Below, piece after piece: positions 1 through 11,495 of a DNA stretch of 64,000 bases. Location of the stretch: positions 1,952,001 to 2,016,000 of the forward strand of contig OZ220691.1 of the NCBI GenBank assembly GCA_965116475.1. Reading direction: 5' to 3'. This stretch comes from Gemmatimonadota bacterium. GTDB lineage: Bacteria > Gemmatimonadota > Gemmatimonadetes > Palauibacterales > Palauibacteraceae. A program made the translations under genes and the position numbers. The notes under the pieces were generated by a model. The model made no database searches. It was not told the origin of the DNA and saw nothing but the letters and a program-made list of their open reading frames with translations. Numbering within the stretch: the stretch's first letter is position 1; every line of letters begins with the position of its first letter.

Positions 1-895
1 GCGGGAGGAGGCCCGTCAGGCCATTCCCGCTCAGGTCGAGCCCGGTGACCTGCCCGAGACTGTCGGCGGTCACGCCGTGCCATCCGTCGAGCGCCGCAAC
101 GGCCTGCAGTCGCAGGGACCCCTCCGCTTGTATCGTCCACCACTCCACGTCCTCCCAACCCTCGGCGTGCGCCCACTGGTCCCCTTCGGCGGACTCGTAC
201 AGTGACAGGAGAACGCGGGTATCCGCCGAGTTGCAGAACGGCCCGTTGTAATCGAGGGTGCCCGGGTTCACCTGATCCGCGGCGATGTCTTCGGCCCAGC
301 CGATAAAGGCGGCCGTGCCGGGGGCGCAGAGACCATCGTTCTCCGAGAACCGGAAAGTGGCGGGATCCAGGTTCAGGAAGCTGCGCGGAATAGCCCCTCC
401 AAGGTTGTTCCTGGAGAGCCGCAGGTGCGCCAGCCGGAGGAGCCTTCCGATTTCGGCCGGAATGGGGCCAGTCAGCCGATTGCCTCCGAGGTCCAGGTGC
501 GTGAGGTCCCTCAGATGCCCGACGTCGGCCGGGATCGAGCCCGCCAGCTGGTTATGTCCCAGTGACAGCTGCTTAACCCGTCCTGCCTCGACCCACACGC
601 CGTGCCAGTCGCCGAGCGGCGCGTCGGTGAGCCAGTTGTCGCGGTTTTTCCAGTTGGGGCCATCGGTCGCATGGTACAGGGCGACGAGCGCGGCCCGGTC
701 GGAGTCCGAGTTCGCGGCCGAAACGGCGGCGGTCGCCGAGACCGCGCCCGATTCCGGCCGCTCCGTGCGGTCGGGCGCGACGGAGTCGTCCATACAGGAG
801 AGAGCCAGCGCGCACGCCAGGCCAGCCTTGAGCAACGGGTGCCCGGTCCCGGTGGTCGACACTGCCGCGGGCCGCTCACGTCCCAGCGCTTTCAT
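1..895 (-). CDS. Leucine-rich-repeat lipoprotein (plant RLK-type LRR with N-cap), runs off window start
   Basis: Hand translation from ATG 895: MKALGRERP...LACALALSC (lipobox-like), DRAALVALYHATDGPNWKNRDNWLTDAPLGDWHGV, LRRs such as LDLGGNRLTGPIPAEIG. ATGA overlap with the stop of the upstream LRR gene. Confidence 0.9.
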   Translation of the reverse strand, partial: MKALGRERPAAVSTTGTGHPLLKAGLACALALSCMDDSVAPDRTERPESGAVSATAAVSAANSDSDRAALVALYHATDGPNWKNRDNWLTDAPLGDWHGVWVEAGRVKQLSLGHNQLAGSIPADVGHLRDLTHLDLGGNRLTGPIPAEIGRLLRLAHLRLSRNNLGGAIPRSFLNLDPATFRFSENDGLCAPGTAAFIGWAEDIAADQVNPGTLDYNGPFCNSADTRVLLSLYESAEGDQWAHAEGWEDVEWWTIQAEGSLRLQAVAALDGWHGVTADSLGQVTGLDLSGNGLTGLLP

Positions 896-3800
896 CGCGT
901 TCCGCCATCCCGGTCCGCCCCGTAAGGGAGGCCCCGGCTGAAGAGAAGCGTGAGGTCACTCCCGAGACCGCCGTCCGGGAGCGTCGTGACAGGCACGCCG
1001 TCGCGGATCGCAACGCCGGAATAGCCGGGAAGGACGGTCGTGCCCGGCTGGCCCCGCAGAATCGCGCGGATCGACCCCGTCGATGAATCGCGGAGGATTG
1101 CCGTCGGCCGATCGGTATTCTCGTCCAGGGTGACGGCCCCTCCCGGACCCGACAGAGTGAGTCGCGCCAGCAAGTTGGCCCACTCGGGCTCGAGCGGAAG
1201 CACGAAAGCAAATCCGGCCCCCCCATCCCGCGCGGTCGCCCGGGGCAGATCGAAGGCCAGCGAAAAGAGCGTCGTACCCGCGGTCGTGCTCCCGGTCAAC
1301 CTGTAGTCTCTTCCGGCCCGGGGCAGCCACGGTGGAGCGTCGACGACGAAAGCCGGTTCGAGGTGCGGCACCCCCGAATCCTCTACTCCACCCCAGAGGA
1401 GCAACCCGGGAGCAGCGCCGGGCATGGCCGTCACCCTGCCGCCGCCGTCCATTGCGGTAAGGTCAAGGGCGCGCGTGAAGTGGAATCCGCTGATCCACCG
1501 GGGCTCGCATTCGGACATCAGGTCGTATCTTTCCGGCGTGACGAGCGTCTGGTGACGACGGTCGTACCCCCAGTCTCCGATCGAACCGTCTCCGTTCGGG
1601 AACGCTCGACCGAACCAATCGGTTCGCCCGTCGCACGGGGCCTCGTTCAGCCCCATGCTGGAGCCCAATTGCTGTGCCATCACCCAGGGATCGAAGACCG
1701 CGAAGCTCGACCCCCGGGAGGCTGCCCCCGGCGGCCCCATGATCTCCCCGGCCATCGTTGCCATGTAGTGACCCACTCCACCCTCGATTCGGCGTATGGC
1801 CGCCGCCTCCCCCGCCAGCCTGAACGTGTGGTTGGAGAAAGTCGTCACCGGCGGGTGCACGACAGGTCTCAGTTCTCCGACCGGCAAGAGGGTCCGCAGA
1901 GGAAAAAAGATGTCATCGTCCGCGGCGAGGTTCGCGGTCAGGTGCAGGATGGACGAGTCCGGCGCCGCTCTGTACAGGAAGGGGATGACCGTGAGGTCGA
2001 GCGGGGGAACGGCCCTCACATCAATGCGCAGCCGACCGGCCTCGGGAAAGCGTGACGGAAGGTCCAATCCCCCTTGGAGGCTCCCGTCCGGATCGATCTG
2101 GAGCACCACTTCCAGGCCCGGCTGGATCACCCAGCCGGGAATATCGGCGTTGAGGGACAACCCCAGGGATCCCTCATCGATTTCAGCCGGAATGACGACC
2201 GTTCCCGCGGGCAAGTCCCGTGTCAAAACTTCGGTGTCCCCCCGGTAGAAGCGGGCGCGCACCGGGGGCATGGTCTGTCCTGCGACGTTCGGGGAAGCCA
2301 CGAAGACGCGAAGCAGCGCAGGCTCCCCCGCGACCAGCGGCACCGGCGCCGAGAGCGACTGCACCGACTGCGTCAAGTATGCGTTCACGCCCACGCACAA
2401 CGGGGTGGCCTCCGCGCCCCTGCCGGCGAGCCAGTCGAGGAAGTCCGGAGCCCTCGGGGCGCAGAGCCCGGTATCGTCCAGGGCAAGCTCCCCCAGTTCC
2501 GGAAGGGAGGCCAGACTCAAGGGCAGCGGTCCCGTAAGGTCCCGATTCGCGGCCAGATCCAGCCGCTCGAGGTTCGCGAGTTCTCCGAGTTCCGTGGGCA
2601 GGTTGCCCGACAGTTCGTTGTCGGCAAGCAGGAGTTCGCGCAGACTCGACAGGCTTCCCAGCTCGGCCGGAATCGAGTACCGCAGCCGGTTACCGCGCAG
2701 ATCCAGCACTTCGAGACTCGACAGACGGCCCAGTTCCACAGGTATCGCGTAGTTGAGACCGGGAGAGGGGTAGGCGGGGGGCTGTCGCATCCTGCTTAGA
2801 TCCAGCACTCTCAACGCGGCAAGCTGCCCGAGCTCGGGCGGGATCGGGCCCACGAGACGATTGCCGCTCAGGTCCAGGACTCTTGCGCGTCGCAGTTTCC
2901 CGAGTGCCCCCGGTATGGAACCGTATAAGTCGTTGTCGCTTAGATCGAGCACTTCCAGGTTTGGAAGGTCACCCAGTGTCTCCATGCTTACATTGTCGAG
3001 CCGGTTCTGTCCCAGCTTCAGGTCGATCAGGCTCTCGAGCCGGTGGAGTCCCCATATTCGGCCCACCAAACCGTTGTCCGTCAGGTCCAGCGCCTGCACG
3101 CGACCAAGGGAGTCGACGGTCACACCGTACCAGTCCGTTGGATCGGCCGCCGCGCCGACCTCCAACCACTCTTCGATTCCTTCAAGCCATCCCGTGGAAT
3201 TCGTCCAGTTCTCGCCACCCGCGAAGTAGTAGAGCGACTCCAACTCAAGCACGTCGGTCGCGTTGCAGAACGGCCCGGCGTAGGAGATCCGCTCCGGCGG
3301 CGCAGGCGAACGGTTACGGATCGCGCCCGCCCATTCGATGAAGTTCGTGGTGCCGGGCGCACAAAGGTTGTTGTTTCGCCCGAACCGGAATTCGAACAGC
3401 TCAAGCGAGAGAAAACTGCGGGGCACGCTGCCGGTCAGGCGGTTCGAGGACAGTTCCAGACGCATCAGTTCCCGCAGATTGCCGAGGCTGGCGGGAAGCG
3501 GTCCGGTCAGACGATTCCAGGAGAGATCCAGCTCCCTCAACGCGTCGAGCCCGTCGATCTCCTCGGGGATGGATTCTGTCAGGAGATTTCGGGAGAGGTT
3601 CAGCCTGGTCAGGCCGCCCAGGTTCCCCAACTCGGCCGGAATGGCGCCGGTGAGCCGGTTCCCGGACAGATTCACCGTGTGCAGCTTCTCCAGTCTGGAC
3701 AGTTCCTTCGGGAGCGGTCCCCCCAAGCTGTTGTCCGGGAGCAACAACACTTCGAGGTTCGCGAGGTCGCCGATCTCGGCCGGAACAGGGCCGTATAGAG

Positions 3801-4356
3801 CGTTCTTCCCCAGGCTCAGTTCGACGACCTGGCCGGCGTCGTCCACCCGGACGCCGCTCCAGTTCGCGACCGGGGCATCCGTCAACCAGTTGTCCCTCCC
3901 GATCCAGTTCGGCCCGTCCGTGGCCCCGTAGAACGCCTCGAGCGCCACCCGATCCGACTCCGCGCTCGTCACGAGCACTGCCGCGCTGCCCGAAGCCGAC
4001 CGGACCGAGGCGCTCACCGTCGCCGCCCCGTAGCCCACTGACGTGACCAGTCCTCCGGCGTCTACGGCCGCGACCGCCTCAGCCGTACTCGACCAGGTGG
4101 GAGTCACATCGCGCATGACCCGTCCGTTCTGATCACGGACAGTCGCCTCCAGACGCACGGTGGCGCCGAGCGCCGTAAACCGGATGGTGGGAGGGTCGAC
4201 CGAGACGGACGCAGGCTGGGGACGTGCGATCGGCTCGGCGGGACCATCCCCGCACGAGGCGACCGTCATGATCGCAACGCACGTTGCAGCGACCGCGCGG
4301 CCCGCCGCGCACCGCCCGGATCCGCGTGGGCGTCCGAACTGATCCGGGTTTCCCAT
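892..4356 (-). CDS. Lipoprotein with Ig-like (Big_2) domain, two LRR blocks and a C-terminal metallopeptidase-like domain with degenerate Zn motif
   Basis: ORF 892..4386, likely ATG 4356. VASC lipobox; WSSTAEAVAAVDAGGLVT Ig motif; many LxLxxNxLxGxIP repeats; C-terminal ...APC...IGDWGYD...DLMS. Confidence 0.9.
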   Translation of the reverse strand: MGNPDQFGRPRGSGRCAAGRAVAATCVAIMTVASCGDGPAEPIARPQPASVSVDPPTIRFTALGATVRLEATVRDQNGRVMRDVTPTWSSTAEAVAAVDAGGLVTSVGYGAATVSASVRSASGSAAVLVTSAESDRVALEAFYGATDGPNWIGRDNWLTDAPVANWSGVRVDDAGQVVELSLGKNALYGPVPAEIGDLANLEVLLLPDNSLGGPLPKELSRLEKLHTVNLSGNRLTGAIPAELGNLGGLTRLNLSRNLLTESIPEEIDGLDALRELDLSWNRLTGPLPASLGNLRELMRLELSSNRLTGSVPRSFLSLELFEFRFGRNNNLCAPGTTNFIEWAGAIRNRSPAPPERISYAGPFCNATDVLELESLYYFAGGENWTNSTGWLEGIEEWLEVGAAADPTDWYGVTVDSLGRVQALDLTDNGLVGRIWGLHRLESLIDLKLGQNRLDNVSMETLGDLPNLEVLDLSDNDLYGSIPGALGKLRRARVLDLSGNRLVGPIPPELGQLAALRVLDLSRMRQPPAYPSPGLNYAIPVELGRLSSLEVLDLRGNRLRYSIPAELGSLSSLRELLLADNELSGNLPTELGELANLERLDLAANRDLTGPLPLSLASLPELGELALDDTGLCAPRAPDFLDWLAGRGAEATPLCVGVNAYLTQSVQSLSAPVPLVAGEPALLRVFVASPNVAGQTMPPVRARFYRGDTEVLTRDLPAGTVVIPAEIDEGSLGLSLNADIPGWVIQPGLEVVLQIDPDGSLQGGLDLPSRFPEAGRLRIDVRAVPPLDLTVIPFLYRAAPDSSILHLTANLAADDDIFFPLRTLLPVGELRPVVHPPVTTFSNHTFRLAGEAAAIRRIEGGVGHYMATMAGEIMGPPGAASRGSSFAVFDPWVMAQQLGSSMGLNEAPCDGRTDWFGRAFPNGDGSIGDWGYDRRHQTLVTPERYDLMSECEPRWISGFHFTRALDLTAMDGGGRVTAMPGAAPGLLLWGGVEDSGVPHLEPAFVVDAPPWLPRAGRDYRLTGSTTAGTTLFSLAFDLPRATARDGGAGFAFVLPLEPEWANLLARLTLSGPGGAVTLDENTDRPTAILRDSSTGSIRAILRGQPGTTVLPGYSGVAIRDGVPVTTLPDGGLGSDLTLLFSRGLPYGADRDGGTR

Positions 4357-4518
4357 GGCGATCTCCGAACCCCCTTTCGAGGCCACCGACCAGAATTAAA
4401 ACGAGCCGGTCACTCCGAAACTGACAGATGAATCTTGCCGCACCCATCGCCGTGGCGAACTATCCGCTGGGCCCACGGGTTCGGTCATGGGTCGCACCTC
4501 GGAGGGCGGGTTCGGAAA

Positions 4519-5643
4519 ATGAGACTTGAAACGCTGGCAGTGAAATCGGGCATGGACCCGGATGGGACGAGCCGGGCGATCGCGCCCCCGATCACCCTCT
4601 CGACCACGTTCGAGCGCGGGGAGGACGGGTCGTACCCCGGAGGGTTCGACTACTCCCGCAGCGGGAACCCGAACCGGGCCTTGCTGGAGGCGGCGCTGGC
4701 CGCGCTGGAAGGCGGGCCGGAAGCCGTCGCGTTCCCCTCGGGGATGGCCGCGACCTTCGCCGTCATCTTCTCGCTCGCGCCGGGGGATCACGTCGTCGCC
4801 GCGGACGACGCGTACTACGGGACCGGCGTTCTCCTGCGGGATTCTTTCGCCGAGCGCGGCATCGAGGCGAGCTTCGTCGACATGACGGACCTCGACGCCG
4901 TCCGGGCCGCCATGCGGCCGACCACCCGCCTCGTGTGGATGGAGACGCCGTCGAACCCGCTCATCCGCATCTCCGACATCGAGGCGCTCGCCTGCATCGC
5001 GCGGGAGGGCGCGGCGATCTCGTGCTGCGACAACACGTGGGCGACGCCGCTCCTGCAGCGGCCGCTGGATCTCGGCGTGGATCTCGTCATGCACTCCACG
5101 ACCAAGTACTTCGGCGGCCACAGCGACGTGACCGGCGGCGCGGTGATTGTCCGCGAGCCGGGCGAGACGCTCGAGGCGCTGCGGAAGATCCAGAAGGACG
5201 GCGGTCTCGTGCCCTCGCCCTTCGACGCCTGGCTCACGAGGCGCGGCCTCGAATCCCTCGCCGCGCGCATGGCCATGCACTGCGCCAACGCTCTGGAGCT
5301 CGCCCGCTTCCTCGACGCCCACCCGCGCGTCGAGCGCGTCCACTATCCGGGGCTGGAGGACGATCCCGGACACGCACTCGCCGCGCGTCAGATGTCCGGC
5401 TTCGGCGGCATGCTGTCCTTCGACGTCGTGGGCGGCCGGGACGAGGCGTTCGCCGTCGCGGCCAACGTGAGGGTCATCGCCCGGGCCACGAGTCTCGGGG
5501 GGACGCATTCCCTCATCGAGCACCGCGCCTCGGTGGAGGGCGCGACGACGCGCGCGCCCGAGAACCTGCTCCGCATGTCCGCCGGCCTCGAACACGTTGA
5601 CGACCTGAAGGAAGATCTGGACCGGGCCCTCGCCGCCGCCTGA
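4519..5643 (+). CDS. PLP-dependent Cys/Met metabolism enzyme (cystathionine gamma-synthase/lyase family)
   Basis: YSRSGNPNR, SGMAA, ETPSNP, DNTWATP, HSTTKYFGGHSD, SLGG and LLRMSAGLE motifs; ATG 4519. Confidence 0.93.
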   Translation: MRLETLAVKSGMDPDGTSRAIAPPITLSTTFERGEDGSYPGGFDYSRSGNPNRALLEAALAALEGGPEAVAFPSGMAATFAVIFSLAPGDHVVAADDAYYGTGVLLRDSFAERGIEASFVDMTDLDAVRAAMRPTTRLVWMETPSNPLIRISDIEALACIAREGAAISCCDNTWATPLLQRPLDLGVDLVMHSTTKYFGGHSDVTGGAVIVREPGETLEALRKIQKDGGLVPSPFDAWLTRRGLESLAARMAMHCANALELARFLDAHPRVERVHYPGLEDDPGHALAARQMSGFGGMLSFDVVGGRDEAFAVAANVRVIARATSLGGTHSLIEHRASVEGATTRAPENLLRMSAGLEHVDDLKEDLDRALAAA

Positions 5644-5662
5644 GCTCCCCACAGCCGCCCAG

Positions 5663-5682
5663 GACGTTCCCGCGGGAACGTC
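5663..5682. repeat. Perfect 20-bp palindrome GACGTTCCCGCGGGAACGTC (REP-like or terminator-like)
   Basis: Read directly. The 16-bp core CGTTCCCGCGGGAACG recurs at 15749-15764. Confidence 0.7.
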
Positions 5683-5687
5683 TCAGC

Positions 5688-5810
5688 GAAGGGCGAGCCA
5701 GCAGTGGGAGTCGGTCGTGTCCGTGTAGTGCGGACCGTCCGGCATGGCGGGCGGCGCGTCGGGGCCGACGTGCCAGATCGAGGCCTGCGTTCCGTTCATC
5801 CGGTTGATCA
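5688..5810 (-). pseudogene. Duplicated 123-bp fragment of the soxG-like region of the sarcosine oxidase alpha-gamma gene
   Basis: Aligns without gaps to 7725-7847 with 7 mismatches (hand count); encodes INRMNGTQASIWHVGP...DTTDSHCWLAL. Confidence 0.92.
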
Positions 5811-5827
5811 TCGTGGGGCGCGCCGGT

Positions 5828-7012
5828 TCAGTCGGAGCAGAGGTGGATGTCGCCGGGCGCTTCACCACGCTCCACGCGGTCGAGGGCCTCGTGCAGCGGC
5901 GGAAGCGTCCACTCGCCGATACGAGGGTAGGGATCTTCGAATCCGGCCCACAGAACCCTCTCGTCCGGGCCGATCCGCGCCACCGTGATGCGGTGGTCGA
6001 GTTCGTATTCCACCACGAACCGGCCGTCCCACGTGAAGACGTGCAGGAACTTGCCGAGGCCGTCGCGGTGCTCCCCGTCGAACACCGCGTACACGAGCCG
6101 GTCGGACACCACCACGTCCTTATAGGCATCCGTGCTCCTTGCGTGGTCGGGAAACAACCTGCCGTCGACGATCTCGAACACGGGCTCCGTGTGTCGCGGA
6201 CCGATCACCCGCAAGTACCGGTGCGCTTCCAGATCGACGAGGTCGACGTATGGCCTGGACCAGTAGACGACCGCCGCGCGGTGACCCGCCACGTCCATGT
6301 GACCTTCATTGTAGAGGCGAGAAAGCCTGGCGCTGCCGCCTGTGTCCTTCGGCAGGAAGGGGGGCAGCGTTGCCAGGCGGCTGCGGAGCCGACCGTCCGA
6401 ATCGAACGTGACCAGCGTGTGGTAGGCGAAGATGCCGCTGCCGATATAGCCATCGTCGAGCGGCGCGAGGCTGGAGATGCGTTCCGCCGCGTAGAACGGC
6501 GATTCGTCGAGGAACGTAACCGTTCCGGATGGCGCGTCGAAGCTGAACCGGCTAAACCTGCGGTTCACCTGATCGTAGATCTCCAGCGCGCCGGGACGTG
6601 CGGCGGACCAGTACATGCTGAGCGGCGTCTCGAACTCGAGGGGTCCGCGCCCCTTCTTGCCGAAGGCCTGTACGATCCGGCCGTCGCTTCGATCAACCAC
6701 CTTCATTCGGGGATCCGAGTAGGTGTCGGATGCCAAGAGATAGGCATCGCTCAGAGGGAAGAGACCCCACACGTATCCGAAGTCGTCCTCGCCTCCGATG
6801 CGTCGATCCAGCGTCAGGCGACAGTCGTTGAAGATCGGACTGCCGGAAGACACGGTGGGCGCCGCCTCCAACTGGACGATCAGAGGCAGGTACGCCTCTT
6901 CCGCGGGCTGCCTCTCGGGAGCCCCGCAACCGCCGAGAACGATCGGCAGGGCAGCGACTCCGAAGAAAGCGGCCCGGCTCCCACAGTGGGAGCCGGGCGC
7001 TCGGCGAAGCAT
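5828..7012 (-). CDS. 6-bladed beta-propeller lipoprotein (BF3164/TolB-like)
   Basis: ATG 7012 overlaps the peptide stop (TGATG). Lipobox IVLGGC; FGKKGRGPLEF propeller motif; LHVFTWDGRFV C-terminal blade. Confidence 0.8.
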   Translation of the reverse strand: MLRRAPGSHCGSRAAFFGVAALPIVLGGCGAPERQPAEEAYLPLIVQLEAAPTVSSGSPIFNDCRLTLDRRIGGEDDFGYVWGLFPLSDAYLLASDTYSDPRMKVVDRSDGRIVQAFGKKGRGPLEFETPLSMYWSAARPGALEIYDQVNRRFSRFSFDAPSGTVTFLDESPFYAAERISSLAPLDDGYIGSGIFAYHTLVTFDSDGRLRSRLATLPPFLPKDTGGSARLSRLYNEGHMDVAGHRAAVVYWSRPYVDLVDLEAHRYLRVIGPRHTEPVFEIVDGRLFPDHARSTDAYKDVVVSDRLVYAVFDGEHRDGLGKFLHVFTWDGRFVVEYELDHRITVARIGPDERVLWAGFEDPYPRIGEWTLPPLHEALDRVERGEAPGDIHLCSD

Positions 7013-7230
7013 CAATCGCAACCGAAGTTGCAGTACCACTCCGACCCGAGATCGTCATCGGGACACGGCGGAGTGAGGGTGCCCTGCGCGCAACCGTAGC
7101 CGGACTGCGCGCAGGCCTCGGAGACCTCGAGAATCGATCCAGCCGCGATGGCCTCGGCAGATCCCAGCCGGACAGGAAGCATGACCAAGCCCAGCACGAG
7201 GCACGCGAGCACGGCGAGTCGGGTCTTTAT
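7012..7230 (-). CDS. Small secreted Cys-rich peptide (72 aa from an ATA start, or 66 aa from GTG 7212)
   Basis: SD AAGGAG 7 nt before ATA. (M)KTRLAVLACLVLGLVMLPV is a signal-like N-terminus, followed by LEVSEACAQ and a tail with 4 more Cys. Stop is coupled to the propeller start. Confidence 0.78.
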   Translation of the reverse strand: MKTRLAVLACLVLGLVMLPVRLGSAEAIAAGSILEVSEACAQSGYGCAQGTLTPPCPDDDLGSEWYCNFGCD

Positions 7231-7275
7231 GTGCGAACTCCTTCAGCAAGGGTAAGGGGACTTTTGAAGCGCCCG

Positions 7276-7305
7276 ACGATACTCCCCCCCCCGTCGATAT
7301 CGCAA
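7276..7305 (-). promoter_or_regulatory. Putative sigma70-type promoter TTGCGA-N18-TATCGT with a G9 tract in the spacer
   Basis: -35 at 7305-7300, -10 at 7281-7276, C9 on the + strand at 7284-7292; about 45 nt upstream of the peptide start. Confidence 0.55.
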
Positions 7306-7306
7306 G

Positions 7307-7346
7307 CCTATACGCAGCATGGAGTCCCTATACGCAGCATGGAGTC
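7307..7346. repeat. Perfect 20-bp tandem duplication CCTATACGCAGCATGGAGTC x2
   Basis: Read directly; abuts the putative -35 box. Confidence 0.95.
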
Positions 7347-7455
7347 GTCCGACCGGTGATCTTGGTGGACAGAATGGGGGCGGGGACCGTCGGTAACGAC
7401 ACGCGTTTATGTAAAATGACTTATGTAATCCATCGAACGAGCCCGCGGGAATATC

Positions 7456-10400
7456 TCAGCTTTCGAGCAGGCGAATCCGGTCGGTGAAGACACGCTCGCC
7501 GGCCGGGCGCAGGCCCGCGTGGCGGCCTGATTCGAGGAGCGCTTCGACGAAGGTCTGTCCGTACCCGCGACTGAACGCGAGGAGGACGGCGTCGTCTTGC
7601 CAAGTGACGACTTGGCAGGGGACATGGAGGATCGGACCCTGCGTGAGGAAGGGCCGGACGCGCGCCGGATCGAAGAGGTCGAGACTCGTGACGCTCTCCA
7701 GCACTTCGCGAACGGACCCTCCCAGAAGGGCGAGCCAGCAGTGGGAGTCGGTCGTGTCCGTGAAGTGCGGACCGGCCGGCATGGCGGGAGGCGCGCCGGG
7801 GCCGACGTGCCAGATCGAGGCCTGGGTGCCGTTCATCCGATTGATCAGCAGACCGTCGCGGACCGCGACAGCTCCCGGTTGGCGCGGCACGTCGAGGCCG
7901 AACGGCCGCACGGTCCGAATGTCGCGGTGCTGGATGTCCCAGCGCGCGCGGTGGCTGAGGTCGATGAGGCAGGCCTGGCGCAGCGCGTCGGTGGGGGCGC
8001 GGTCGGTTTCGTAGTCGAGCACCACGTTCCAGCCGGCCCGGCGCTCGGTGCGGGCGGGCGCGGCGTCGAAGCGGACCGGAGACCGGCGATGGGCCGCGGG
8101 CGCCGGCTGCGGTGGTACCTCGCCGGCCCGGGGCGGGCGCCCTTCGGGGGCGGTCCGCAGGCGCGTCCCTTTCGGATCGTGGAAGTGGGGAGGCACCACG
8201 GTCGCCGTCGAACGGACGGTCCGCCGGCCCAGCGATTCGTACAGGTCGAGCGAACGGCCCCGCTCCGCCAGCCGGTCCTCGACGAGCGCGAGTCCGTACT
8301 GCCAGCCCAGCGTCTCGCTGTGCCGCGTCGTGCACACGAAGCCGGCGATCCGCTCCCCGTCCACGACGAGTGCCCCGTCCCCGGGCCGGCGGACGGCGGC
8401 AGGAGCGGTCCCGGCGCCCGGGTCGCCGGACGCGGGGTCGTCGACGCGGAGTCCGACGAGCTTCAGCCGCCCGGTCTGCCCCTCGCAGTGGCGCAGCGCC
8501 GCGGCGCCCACCTTGCCGGAGGCCGTGTCCTCGCGGTCCCACAGCCAGCCCATGCCGATGTCGAGGAGGGTGACGCGCTGCTCGGACTCCGTCCCGATGA
8601 TCACGTGTCCCTTCTCGGCCCGCAGACAGCTCTGCGCTTCGAGCCCGAACGGGCGGATGCCGTACTCCGCTCCGGCCTCCCACAGCAGGTCCCACACGTA
8701 CCGGGCGCTGCTCGCGCGCATGTGCAGTTCATAGGACAGCTCACCCACGAACCCCAGGCGCAGGCACCGCGCCGCCACGCCGTCGCCGACCTCGATCTCG
8801 CGGCAGCCGAGGTACGGGAACGCCTCGTCCGACAGGTCCGTGCCCGTGATTCTCCCGAGCACCCGCCGCGCGTTCGGGCCGGCCACGTTGATGGAGGCGA
8901 GCGCGTCGGTGAGGTTCACGAGGTTGTAGTCCCATCCGTCGTATCGGGTGTGGAAACGGAGCCACTCGACCGTGGTCCCCGCCCGGTTCGAACTCGTCGT
9001 GAAGTAGAACTCGTCCTCACCCGTCCGCACGACGACGCCGTCGTCGATGATGTTGCCCGTGTCGTTGCACATCGCCGAATACATGCAGCGGCCGGGCCGC
9101 GCGCGCGTCATGTCGGAGACGTAGACGCGCTGGAGCGCGCGCAGGGCGTCGGGTCCCCAGATCCGGAACTTGCCCAGCGGCGAACTGTCCAGGAGGCCGA
9201 CATTCTCGCGCACGTTGCGGATCTCCTCCCGACACTCCCGGTCCGCGCTGAAGTAGCGCGCCCTCAGCCAGGGCCCCGCCCGCCGGAACACGGCGCCCCG
9301 CGCGGCCTGGTCGTCGTGGAGCGGAGTGCGCTTGTGGACGTCGTGGTTCGGGCCCGCGAGCGTCGAGAGGGAAGGGGGGATGACCGGTGGCCGCACCGTG
9401 GTGGCGGCGAAGCTGCCCAGCGGCCGATCCGCGATTTCGGCCATCGCCATGGCGAGGTTCTGACCCGGCACGCGGTACTGGCCGGGGCCGAGGCCGAAGT
9501 TCCCGAAGCGCTTCGCGAGTTCGGGCACGTCGAGGCCGTAGGCGGTGCACTGGGCCGCGTTCTTCCACGTGCCGTCTTCGTCAAAATCGAGGAACGCCTT
9601 GCGGCCGGGGGCGAGACGCCGTCCTGCGGCGGGTCCGCGGACGATCGAGGAGCCCCGGGCGGGCCCCGGCAGGTCGGCCAGGCGCGCGCGCTCCCGGGTC
9701 AGCGCGTCCCCGACGCTCGCGCCGCACTCCGCGGCGGCCTCTAGCCCCGCGATCCGCCCGGAACAGGCGAGCGCCTCGAGGTCGGTGAGCCGCAGGACGC
9801 CGCCCGCGGCGAACACGTCGGGTGGGAGGCGCTCGAGCTCGAAGGTCCGGGTGCGCTCGCCGTGGCGGAACCGCGCGCCGGCACACGAGAGGACGCCGAT
9901 GTCCGGCTGCCGCCCCGCGCTCGCCACCAGCAGGTCGCACGCCACGCGCAGCGCGTCGCCCGCCGCACCGCCCACCGCACCGCTCCCCGCGCCGCCCGCC
10001 GCCCGGGCCGCCAACTCGATTGCCCGCACGCGCCCCCGCCCGCGCACGCGGGACGCGGCCCAGCCCGGCCGGAAGTCGATGCCCGCGCCCGCCAGGGCGT
10101 CCACCAGCTCCGGGTCGTGCCCGTCGCGCCGCGCGTCGGCGACGACGCGTACGTCCACGCCGAGCGCGGCCAGATCCGCCGCCGCCTCGAGCCCGAGGTC
10201 GTCGCCCACGCTGAAGGCGGCGGCCGCGCCCGGCCGGACGCCGTACGTTCGCGCGAGCCGGATCGCCGTGTCGGCCTGCATCGCGCCCGGCCGGTCGTTG
10301 TGCTCGAACACGAGCGGCCGCTCGATCGAGCCGGTCGCGACCACGATCGTCCGCGCGCGGCACTCCCAGTGCACTTCCCCCCGTCCCCCTTCGGACGGCG

Positions 10401-11196
10401 CGTCCGGTCCCGGAAGCTGAAAGCCCGTGAGGAGGTTCTCCCCCCAGATCCCCGTCACCGGCGCGTGCCGGAACACGCGCATGGATTCCATGCGTTCGAG
10501 CCGGTCGGCGAGCGCGGACGCCTCCCCGGCGAGCGCACGACCGTCCCGCACCCGCCAGTCGAGGTGCCCACCCAGCCACGGCCGGCGCTCGAACAGGCAT
10601 ACGCGGAGGCCGAGCCGCCCCGCCTCGAGCGCCGCGGACAGCCCGGCCGGACCGCCGCCGACCACCGCCACGTCCGCGTGCAGGTAGCGCTCCGCCCGTC
10701 CCCCCGTGTATGCCCGTTCCCCCGCGCCCGTCCGCTCCGCCGCGTCGGGCCGTAGCACCCCCAGGCCGGCCAGCCCGCGCATCCGCTCCTGGAAGAACCG
10801 GGCGGCCCACGCGGGGCGGTGGAACAGCCGGTAGTAGAACCCCGCCGGCATGAACCGGTCGAGCCGGTCCAGGAAACCGAGGGCGTCAAAGCGCGGATCC
10901 CCGCGCACGTTCTGGGCGCCGACCTCCATCCCCTCGCGCAGCGGCGTCGTCCCCGCGGACTGGTTCGGCACGCCGTCGACCGAGACGAGCTGGCTCGACC
11001 CTTCGCCCTCCAGATCGTACAGCCCCCGGGGCCGGTGATACTCGAAGCTCCGGCCGAAGGTGCGGACCCCCGCCCCCCAGAGCGCCGAGGCGACCGTATC
11101 TCCCTCGAACCCCTCCAGCGCGCGCCCGCACCAGCGGAAACCGAGCGGCCGCGAGCGGTCGATCCGCTCCGTCGACGACGGCGGCAGCCGACTCAC
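7456..11196 (-). CDS. soxA: Sarcosine oxidase-like alpha subunit fused to a C-terminal gamma-subunit-like domain
   Basis: GDTVASAL...RSFEYHRPRG N-terminus; VVGGGPAGL; TVRPP; GcvT-like DDGVV, RLGFVGELSYEL and RAEKGH motifs; then about 210 aa SoxG-like (LIDLSHRARWD...SRGYGQ). GTG 11196 overlaps the soxD stop. Confidence 0.9.
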   Translation of the reverse strand: MSRLPPSSTERIDRSRPLGFRWCGRALEGFEGDTVASALWGAGVRTFGRSFEYHRPRGLYDLEGEGSSQLVSVDGVPNQSAGTTPLREGMEVGAQNVRGDPRFDALGFLDRLDRFMPAGFYYRLFHRPAWAARFFQERMRGLAGLGVLRPDAAERTGAGERAYTGGRAERYLHADVAVVGGGPAGLSAALEAGRLGLRVCLFERRPWLGGHLDWRVRDGRALAGEASALADRLERMESMRVFRHAPVTGIWGENLLTGFQLPGPDAPSEGGRGEVHWECRARTIVVATGSIERPLVFEHNDRPGAMQADTAIRLARTYGVRPGAAAAFSVGDDLGLEAAADLAALGVDVRVVADARRDGHDPELVDALAGAGIDFRPGWAASRVRGRGRVRAIELAARAAGGAGSGAVGGAAGDALRVACDLLVASAGRQPDIGVLSCAGARFRHGERTRTFELERLPPDVFAAGGVLRLTDLEALACSGRIAGLEAAAECGASVGDALTRERARLADLPGPARGSSIVRGPAAGRRLAPGRKAFLDFDEDGTWKNAAQCTAYGLDVPELAKRFGNFGLGPGQYRVPGQNLAMAMAEIADRPLGSFAATTVRPPVIPPSLSTLAGPNHDVHKRTPLHDDQAARGAVFRRAGPWLRARYFSADRECREEIRNVRENVGLLDSSPLGKFRIWGPDALRALQRVYVSDMTRARPGRCMYSAMCNDTGNIIDDGVVVRTGEDEFYFTTSSNRAGTTVEWLRFHTRYDGWDYNLVNLTDALASINVAGPNARRVLGRITGTDLSDEAFPYLGCREIEVGDGVAARCLRLGFVGELSYELHMRASSARYVWDLLWEAGAEYGIRPFGLEAQSCLRAEKGHVIIGTESEQRVTLLDIGMGWLWDREDTASGKVGAAALRHCEGQTGRLKLVGLRVDDPASGDPGAGTAPAAVRRPGDGALVVDGERIAGFVCTTRHSETLGWQYGLALVEDRLAERGRSLDLYESLGRRTVRSTATVVPPHFHDPKGTRLRTAPEGRPPRAGEVPPQPAPAAHRRSPVRFDAAPARTERRAGWNVVLDYETDRAPTDALRQACLIDLSHRARWDIQHRDIRTVRPFGLDVPRQPGAVAVRDGLLINRMNGTQASIWHVGPGAPPAMPAGPHFTDTTDSHCWLALLGGSVREVLESVTSLDLFDPARVRPFLTQGPILHVPCQVVTWQDDAVLLAFSRGYGQTFVEALLESGRHAGLRPAGERVFTDRIRLLES

Positions 11197-11495
11197 GACG
11201 AGTCTCCCCCGCGCGCCTCGCCGCCGCCGGGCCGGGTCTCCCGGTTCGTGGCTGGGTCGCGCCACGTCGAGAACCAGACGCCGCAGCCCGCCCCGTGGTG
11301 CCACCACTCCTCACGCGGCTCCGGACGGTTCATGCGAAACTGCGCCCAGCGGAAGTGCGCCTCCGCGGCGGCCCCGCGATCCGCGCCCTCCGCGGCATCT
11401 CCCTCGGCCGGTCTCGGCCCCCGCTCGGGTCCTCCGTACGTGAACTCGTACACGTCGCGCTTCCCGCACACCGGGCACGTCAACCGGAACGTCAC
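11193..11495 (-). CDS. soxD: Sarcosine oxidase delta subunit
   Basis: CPVCGKRDVYEFTYGG and EEWWHHGAGCGVWFSTWRD Zn-ligand motifs. Confidence 0.93.
   Translation of the reverse strand: MTFRLTCPVCGKRDVYEFTYGGPERGPRPAEGDAAEGADRGAAAEAHFRWAQFRMNRPEPREEWWHHGAGCGVWFSTWRDPATNRETRPGGGEARGGDSS

Follow-up and report, generated by a model that had tools for sequence, protein, structure and literature searches.

What might a small cysteine-rich peptide do when its gene is joined, stop codon to start codon, to the gene of a much larger lipoprotein? The question is raised by positions 5828 to 7230 of a 64,000-nucleotide (nt) stretch of DNA, here called the window, from the genome of a marine sponge-associated bacterium of the phylum Gemmatimonadota (positions 1,952,001 to 2,016,000 of contig OZ220691.1, assembly GCA_965116475.1). 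A preliminary description of this locus, drawn up from the letters of the DNA, had proposed a secreted relative of the NVEALA peptides of the Bacteroidota, with a six-bladed beta-propeller lipoprotein as its receptor or immunity partner. As described below, the exported cysteine peptide and the propeller lipoprotein are encoded by a real and conserved pair of genes; the family of the peptide has no name and hardly extends beyond one genus of the Gemmatimonadota (Candidatus Palauibacter, according to database entries); and the copy in the window is a horizontally inserted, strain-specific two-gene cassette. We read the two products as a ligand-partner pair of the cell envelope, here orphaned and possibly decaying, and assign to this reading a probability of about 0.45. 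The genes and their families, their strict synteny, the propeller fold, the insertion and a change of start codon are taken as established; physical binding between peptide and propeller, and a role of the two in signaling, are what we infer from them.

A conserved pair of genes

Both genes are read from the minus strand. The peptide gene (7012..7230) is defined by its reading frame, by alignments, by homologs and by orthologs that carry M at the position of its first codon, and it comprises 72 codons, from ATA at 7230..7228 to TGA at 7014..7012. The frame is open between an upstream stop at 7245..7243 and this TGA and encodes RSSH-IKTRLAVLACLVLGLVMLPVRLGSAEAIAAGSILEVSEACAQSGYGCAQGTLTPPCPDDDLGSEWYCNFGCD, with the C-terminal sequence KTRLAVLACLVLGLVMLPVRLGSAEAIAAGSILEVSEACAQSGYGCAQGTLTPPCPDDDLGSEWYCNFGCD in the translation of the window. 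The lipoprotein gene (5828..7012; 394 amino acids, aa) begins with an ATG at 7012..7010 that shares its A with the peptide stop, the overlap reading TGATG (7014..7010). This overlap had been described correctly, as had the lipobox (VLGG|C29) and the propeller motif (GKKGRGPLEF, residues 118-127) of the 394-aa open reading frame (ORF). The 72-aa ORF first reported is real as to its frame, its TGA and its motifs (ILEVSEACAQ is present in the translation), but it lacks a canonical start, codon 1 being ATA.

The pairing extends well beyond the window. A propeller ORF with the motif G..G.GP.E[FL] lies directly downstream in 21 of 21 peptide loci, and a small cysteine-containing ORF with a signal peptide lies directly upstream in 17 of the 23 propeller loci, the other six being weak or partial matches. 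Homologous small ORFs thus do occur beside related propellers, which the preliminary description had named as a check on its proposal. Relatives of the propeller were found in 22 of 41 related genomes, including 18 of 24 in the genus when the window's own genome (G000) is excluded; most are 23-27% identical to the window protein, and the closest, in genome G005, is 37% identical.

The exported peptide

Residues 1-27 of the peptide have the composition of a Sec-type signal (KTR, a hydrophobic core, an invariant Pro19 and AEA), and residues 28-72, with cysteines at positions 40, 47, 56, 67 and 71, are the presumed exported part. Cleavage at AEA|I after residue 27 would fit the -3/-1 rule and would fall at the usual distance behind the hydrophobic core; judged from these features, the peptide would be exported and its cysteines would form disulfides. 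Export by the Tat route was considered and rejected: the TAT_signal profile touched one of 48 family members (E 0.0041), and a twin arginine is not conserved in the family and is absent from the window peptide.

In the alignment of the family, the Pro at the end of the hydrophobic core and the first Cys are both invariant, and the framework reads C-x4-5-C...C-P-D...C. Exactly five cysteines are present from the invariant Cys onward in 45 of the 48 peptides, the exceptions being P0071, which is clearly truncated, P0055, which has four cysteines and ends early, and one variant with seven. The tail that had been counted from Q42 does have 31 residues and four cysteines, but the exported part has a fifth, namely the invariant Cys of EAC.

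A profile search of a collection of 5.8 billion proteins returned 71 proteins at E <= 0.01, all of 59-83 aa and without a Pfam domain; those that bear a name are entries for a "hypothetical protein" of Candidatus Palauibacter or Gemmatimonadales. The family profile detects two copies in the window's own genome, that of the window (E 4.4e-16) and one at C1:729168-729371. Across a sample of 401 genomes of the phylum, in which 14 candidates were scored per genome, the profile found the peptide in 14 genomes; it is present in 12 of the 18 genomes of the genus and in none of the 11 from the family's other genera, and one peptide-bearing genome belongs to another family of the class. The window peptide itself has no Pfam or NCBIfam match at E <= 1, nothing below E 0.37 in a sequence search of the PDB, and a best cosine of 0.83, to unnamed clusters and below the useful range, in the protein atlas. 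Searches for related loci returned nothing from genome contigs (P0191, P0001) or metagenome contigs (P0001, alignment A6).

The proposed kinship with NVEALA is not borne out by these comparisons. The NVEALA profile (PF14055) matched neither the window peptide (E <= 1) nor any of the 48 family members (E <= 10), and its one match elsewhere in the genome, at 17.6 bits, is below the gathering score of 27 bits. What EVSEACAQ of the window and AVNEACAQ of genome G418 have in common with NVEALA is E-A-x-A, which is too short to carry weight. The preliminary description had also anticipated a conserved leader followed by a hypervariable cysteine tail, and the reverse was found. In the 42 members that are linked to sigma factor genes (see below), the mature part is conserved and the signal peptide is variable, and the conserved columns (G..L-S.A.C.E..CG...DC.CPD..Q..N..PRC) belong to the mature part. 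Only among four close orthologs, which are few and related sequences, are changes in the loops somewhat more frequent: differences affect 17 of 112 core positions and 11 of 164 positions of the signal plus linker, and they are concentrated at residues 49, 51, 53, 55 and 61-63, in two inter-cysteine loops.

Cleavage at A-C-A|Q, as first suggested, would fall 22 residues beyond the hydrophobic core and would discard the only Cys that all 48 peptides share, and it finds no support as the site of signal removal. A second processing step at this point is nevertheless conceivable, because a product cut at ACA|Q would have its cysteines in even number, and because EACAQ is unchanged in all members of the subtype to which the window peptide belongs. 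On such a scheme, the propeller would be an enzyme or scaffold that matures the peptide, for example by removal of a propeptide at EACA|Q followed by formation of pyroglutamate, or by oxidative folding, and the product would have four cysteines and two disulfides. We consider this scheme rather unlikely, since the Cys that would be discarded is the invariant one and the sigma-linked majority of the family has no consistent cleavage motif after the first Cys; the properties of the propeller bear on it as well.

The propeller lipoprotein

That the lipoprotein is a propeller of the TolB-like kind was correctly recognized at the outset. It matches TolB_like (PF15869) over residues 110-343 with 35.2 bits against a gathering score of 29.2, and its AlphaFold2 (AF2) model, built with 72 homologs, has six confident blades (predicted local distance difference test, pLDDT, 91.9; predicted template modeling score, pTM, 0.88). 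Together with fold comparisons, these results identify it as a six-bladed propeller of the NHL type. Foldseek returned generic propellers for the model, among them BF0058 of B. fragilis (4raa; sequence-profile E 0.0018). In a structure search independent of Foldseek, NHL domains ranked at the top (Brat, Z 22.3; Mei-P26, 21.6; TRIM2, 20.4), with BF0058 at Z 18.0, and the sequence profile of the propeller matches the NHL chains of TRIM proteins with E ~1e-15. Phytase, peptidyl-alpha-hydroxyglycine lyase (3fw0, Z 19.9), Drp35 and lactonases (8djf, Z 19.6) come within ~3 Z of the top NHL matches, and for this reason the fold alone cannot decide between a binder and an enzyme.

The near-invariant columns among the 72 homologs (D96, G118, G121, G123, P124, E126, D147, R152, N235, Y297, W328 and others) fit the NHL repeat signature, and the lipobox Cys is nearly invariant; these homologs have no His among their invariant or near-invariant columns and no recognizable catalytic constellation. 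Since the conserved residues fit the NHL signature without a His, the model is more readily understood as that of a binding module than as that of an enzyme. The lyase and the lactonases among the structural neighbors would suit a propeller that matures the peptide, whereas the top fold matches are non-enzymatic NHL binding domains and the homologs have no invariant set of metal-binding or catalytic residues.

Propellers of the stand-alone subtype described below have an extra pair of cysteines, C64 and a C-terminal Cys (Cys392 in the window). Because the two occur together in six of the six sequences that have C64, a disulfide between Cys64 and Cys392 is probable.

Sigma-linked and stand-alone units

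Most relatives of the pair are part of larger operons. In genomes G014 and G010, each with two units, the gene order is an extracytoplasmic function (ECF) sigma factor (Sigma70_r2/r4_2), a ~700-aa anti-sigma factor with zf-HC2 and TPR domains, the peptide and the TolB_like propeller. The second copy in the window's own genome (C1:~729 kb) likewise has the anti-sigma factor, the peptide and a propeller; a sigma factor gene would lie outside the stretch examined. In this paralog (G000:C1:~728600-732000; L002, L025, L052), the peptide and anti-sigma genes are intact, and the propeller is truncated or replaced in its 3' half, since its alignment with a 375-aa relative covers no more than residues 1-202 of the latter. 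When the anti-sigma factors were tested for a thioredoxin-type domain, one of five gave a weak match to AhpC-TSA (E 0.038).

The sigma-linked units are embedded in islands (L052, 3253-12705; L050, 12208-19676; L051, 6681-7874 and 16488-18848) packed with genes for propellers of the DUF5128/NHL type. The same islands encode short CarboxypepD_reg proteins, some with a Plug domain, that end in ...IWTK and have no TonB-receptor barrel. In G014, a type I signal peptidase gene (Peptidase_S26, E 3.9e-46; L050, 7241-8083) directly follows one of the two peptide-propeller units, and its product may serve specifically to process the peptide or the lipoprotein. Such a gene would be in keeping with maturation of the peptide, but it is present in only one of five sigma-linked units.

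The pair in the window stands alone. Upstream of it are 225 nt of non-coding DNA and the gene of a 1283-aa protein resembling the alpha subunit of sarcosine oxidase (sox-like gene), and downstream is a convergent gene for a pyridoxal phosphate (PLP) enzyme of Cys/Met metabolism. The pair of G005 is likewise free-standing, flanked by the genes of a TrkA-type channel and of a Fic protein, and the tail of its peptide, YYCNFGCGIG, resembles the WYCNFGCD of the window. EACAQ, PPCPD and WYCNFGC characterize this stand-alone subtype, of which the large collection contains seven proteins; P0228, with 46% identity, is the most distant. The window copy belongs to this rare subtype, which has escaped from the sigma-linked operon.

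These contexts also bear on the proposal, made in the preliminary description, of a toxin-immunity or polymorphic ligand-receptor pair. In this scheme a bacteriocin-like peptide would harm competitors and the propeller would protect the producer, and the arrangement is suggestive of it, with a small peptide gene first and a tightly coupled partner gene second in an inserted, strain-variable cassette; the clustering of ortholog substitutions in two inter-cysteine loops would also be in keeping with it. Yet no outer-membrane exporter, C39/ABC transporter or double-glycine leader was found between 892 and 11307, the leader of the peptide being of the Sec type, and the same interval has no small membrane immunity protein, the partner of the peptide being a 394-aa propeller lipoprotein that, to our knowledge, is unlike the known peptide-immunity proteins. 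Moreover, the mature framework is conserved family-wide while the signal peptide varies, most members of the family reside in sigma/anti-sigma operons, and neither a PADLOC match nor polymorphism of the proposed kind was found. We therefore regard a toxin-immunity or polymorphic receptor system as improbable.

Insertion of the cassette

The DNA around the pair retains the marks of its insertion. A 123-nt repeat, whose resident copy (7725..7847) lies within the intact sox-like gene, recurs with 94% identity at 5688..5810 and marks the distal end of the cassette. Adjoining it, at 5664..5687, is a 24-nt copy of the sox stop and the palindrome CCCGCGGG, 83% identical to the second copy at 7437..7460, where the sox-like gene has its true 3' end. 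The 24-nt copies bracket an insertion of ~1.77 kilobases (kb; 5688-7460), and the distal repeat copies together represent part of the sox 3' region joined to a stop. The G+C content is 0.61-0.65 inside the cassette and 0.70-0.77 around it.

An empty site was found in public sequencing runs. A minor contig of run X1 (depth 6.8, as against 65 for the main population) and one contig of run X3 join 5688 (or 5687) to 7471, with 9-10 other letters between. The sox loci of relatives, compared in the 11 species genomes of the genus whose sox matches were best, are likewise without the cassette: none matches 5813-7435, and the 3' end of the sox gene is directly followed by a metC-like gene in eight and by something else in three. 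The distal 123-nt fragment is up to 94% identical to the copies of other species and 94% identical to the resident copy, and this equal similarity suggests that a related genome was the source of the cassette, which would have been acquired by recombination. The fact that the insertion was caught together with its empty site in co-occurring strains indicates that the pair, and not the whole operon, is the mobile unit.

The cassette is also present in data other than the assembly. In run X1, possibly from the assembly's own sample, a Logan contig (depth 65) has the same sequence across 5696-7573; a contig of run X4, a sponge metagenome, covers 7002-7215 in 214 nt with one difference to the window. 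Run X2, from a second study, has a 10.4-kb contig that is identical over 5600-6940 and then has 20 unlike letters to its end. This run does not cover 6941-7900, and the break may reflect either an assembly end or a strain whose junction at the signal-peptide region of the propeller differs.

The position of the cassette next to the sox-like gene has to be judged in the same light. A small exported Cys-rich protein and a propeller that adjoin the gene of an amine-oxidizing enzyme might bring to mind the small subunits of propeller enzymes, such as the light chains of methylamine dehydrogenase or the gamma subunit of quinohemoprotein amine dehydrogenase. Since the relatives have the sox locus without the cassette, and other cassettes lie in unrelated contexts, this neighborhood is an accident of the insertion. 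The propellers of both dehydrogenases have seven blades, as against the six NHL blades of the window protein; no radical-SAM or other maturation gene is nearby, and the peptide family has no conserved Trp. A small-subunit function was rejected on these grounds and seems to us highly improbable.

Start codon, leader and hairpin

The head of the peptide frame offers no ATG, GTG or TTG. Codon 1 is ATA (7230..7228), and the earliest of these codons in frame is a GTG at 7212, which would give 66 aa and loss of the basic N-region. A Shine-Dalgarno-like AAGGAG (7238..7243, minus strand) lies 7 nt upstream of the ATA, and in 15 relatives an ATG at the equivalent position comes shortly after a purine-rich stretch of the same kind (GGAGG, AAAGGA etc.). 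Orthologs P0069, P0071 and P0072 (83-92% identical) start with MKTRLAV and have M at the position of the window's ATA; P0070 has T at this position and an M upstream. As three of four close orthologs carry M there, the true start of the window peptide has changed from ATG to ATA. Given this change, expression of the peptide, and through coupling also that of the propeller, is probably weak, and the inserted cassette may be decaying in the window genome.

Taken further, the same observations would make the cassette a non-functional remnant, brought in by recombination, deprived of its peptide start and idle in this genome. This would accord with the ATA, with the dependence of the propeller on coupling to the peptide frame (no separate Shine-Dalgarno sequence for it was seen in the stretches inspected), with the truncation at ~residue 202 of the propeller in the genome's sigma-linked copy, and with the absence of the cassette from 11 of 11 loci of relatives. 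We hold complete loss of function to be unlikely, however, in that both frames are intact, with neither internal stops nor frameshifts, AAGGAG is kept at the right distance, and the main population of run X1 and, over 5600-6940, the run from the second study have the identical sequence. Non-ATG starts, moreover, can initiate at a low level.

The non-coding leader (7231..7455, minus strand; 225 nt), between the stop of the sox-like gene and the peptide gene, is AT-richer. It holds a perfect 20-nt tandem duplication at 7307-7346 (CCTATACGCAGCATGGAGTC, twice) and a G8 run near 7281-7288. In the upstream direction of the minus strand, these are preceded by an AT-rich stretch in which the word TTACATAA occurs twice. 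No promoter was identified: promoter prediction found no sigma-70-like site, and a search for ECF-type motifs common to the leader and the regions upstream of four sigma genes, whose starts were guessed from the longest ORFs, gave nothing convincing. Rfam matches over 5600-7600 were sub-threshold noise.

A strong RNA hairpin lies within codons 5-14 of the propeller (6972..6998, minus strand), starting 14 nt after the peptide stop; it has a perfect 12-base-pair stem and a loop of three, followed by CGCUUUCUUC. The 71-nt stretch that contains it has a minimum free energy of -36.6 kcal/mol (z -3.8), a value reached in 0 of 200 shuffles. With its partly U-rich tract, this is a terminator-like site within the signal-peptide codons of the propeller, and it may either lower the expression of the propeller relative to the peptide, as an attenuator, or protect the peptide message, as a stabilizer of its 3' end. 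The hairpin is not family-wide: among 21 loci, it is conspicuous in no more than two, those of the window (z -3.2) and of the paralog in the same genome (z -2.3). In ortholog P0073, a comparison at the protein level shows that the residues of both stem arms (APGS...GSR) are kept and that the loop differs.

A possible ligand-partner pair in the envelope

In the mechanism that we propose, the first gene would give rise to a Sec-exported mini-protein of ~45 residues with a conserved five-cysteine framework, and the second, translationally coupled to it through TGATG, to a six-bladed NHL-type propeller lipoprotein. The two products would meet in the cell envelope as a binding pair, with the oxidatively folded peptide as a ligand or small subunit and the membrane-tethered propeller as its receptor or carrier. 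In the sigma-linked relatives, the pair would constitute the distal half of an operon and would most likely feed an envelope signal to the anti-sigma factor.

A complex prediction for peptide residues 28-72 with propeller residues 40-394, made with alignments for both and without controls, scored 0.02 as against a mark of 0.32, a result that counts neither for nor against binding. Several observations weigh against the proposed mechanism. The AF2 model of the lone peptide (48 sequences) is of low confidence (pLDDT 52). A ligand that is simply stapled by disulfides would usually have its cysteines in even number, and the odd count could mean metal, thioether or mixed disulfide chemistry, and the EACAQ just before the cysteine core may mark a second processing site. 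The pair in the window has no sigma or anti-sigma neighbor, so that a signaling output of this copy would be hard to account for. As for the decay of the cassette, P0070 also has no Met at the canonical start, so that the start may be flexible and the gene not decaying; and the public runs that have the region include, as listed, no RNA run.

A more far-reaching view is that the Cys peptide and the NHL propeller are the self-contained, mobile core of a broad and hitherto undescribed class of envelope peptide-receptor systems in diderm bacteria, a class that would include the NVEALA/TolB_like cassettes of the Bacteroidales as well as the sigma-linked units of the Gemmatimonadota. The propeller would then read the folding or redox state of the peptide, including that of the odd invariant Cys, and an attached anti-sigma factor would convert this state into gene expression. 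We offer this as a speculation that is unlikely to hold; were it true, the stand-alone cassette of the window would be a sign that neither the function nor the spread of the pair requires the regulator.

Comparison with known systems

In the Bacteroidales, there are what we take to be comparable arrangements, in which small NVEALA proteins (PF14055; about 70-86 aa) are encoded beside TolB_like/DUF5128 propeller lipoproteins. The window resembles them in having a small (72-codon) gene for an exported peptide directly upstream of a PF15869 propeller lipoprotein, but differs from them in a peptide with no PF14055 match and a fixed five-Cys framework, and in its high-G+C Gemmatimonadota host; the cassette also has no gene for a thioredoxin-like partner. 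With the sigma/anti-sigma operons of the Gemmatimonadota it shares the peptide family (E 4.4e-16), the kind of propeller, the gene order and the coupling. It is set apart from them by the absence of an ECF sigma factor or zf-HC2 anti-sigma factor upstream, by its position on a recent insertion and by its divergent subtype, with propellers that are ~25% identical and another loop pattern.

The NHL domains of Brat, TRIM2/3/71 and the sensor domain of PknD resemble the propeller in their six-bladed fold (Z 18-22) and, for the TRIM proteins, in their sequence profile, but identity is only 10-16% and the window protein is a bacterial lipoprotein. TolB binds peptide segments of Pal and of colicins on a face of its propeller, and NHL and TolB binding modules may serve as a working analogy for a propeller that holds the peptide. 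Bufferins, which are modified by MNIO enzymes and bind copper, and Sec-dependent bacteriocins have in common with the peptide a Sec signal and a short Cys-rich exported product, but here the partner is a propeller, and the flanks examined contain neither a maturase (MNIO/DUF692, radical-SAM or other) nor a dedicated exporter. A maturase of ribosomally synthesized and post-translationally modified peptides (radical SAM, YcaO, MNIO, lanthipeptide synthetase etc.) was found neither in these flanks nor in the units of relatives that were examined.

Among the titles and abstracts that literature searches brought up, there was no functional study of the Cys-peptide/propeller pair or of the sigma-linked operon. 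What appears to be new is an unnamed peptide family with a fixed five-Cys framework that is strictly paired with a propeller, and the existence of this pair both within ECF sigma operons and as a free-standing cassette. Small exported Cys peptides and propeller lipoproteins recur together in several phyla; the cassette defines a minimal two-protein system that is open to tests of binding, processing and redox behavior.

Neighboring genes

The sox-like gene (7456-11307, minus strand) encodes a protein with Fer2_4, Pyr_redox_2, SO_alpha_A3 and GCV_T domains. The C-terminal extension of this protein includes the duplicated 123-nt piece, and residues 792-881 give a weak match to SoxG (E 0.0024). 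Two genes away from the cassette, at 892-4386 (minus strand), is a gene whose exported product, of 1164 aa, combines a Big_2 domain with long arrays of leucine-rich repeats; eukaryote-like repeat proteins are common in sponge symbionts.

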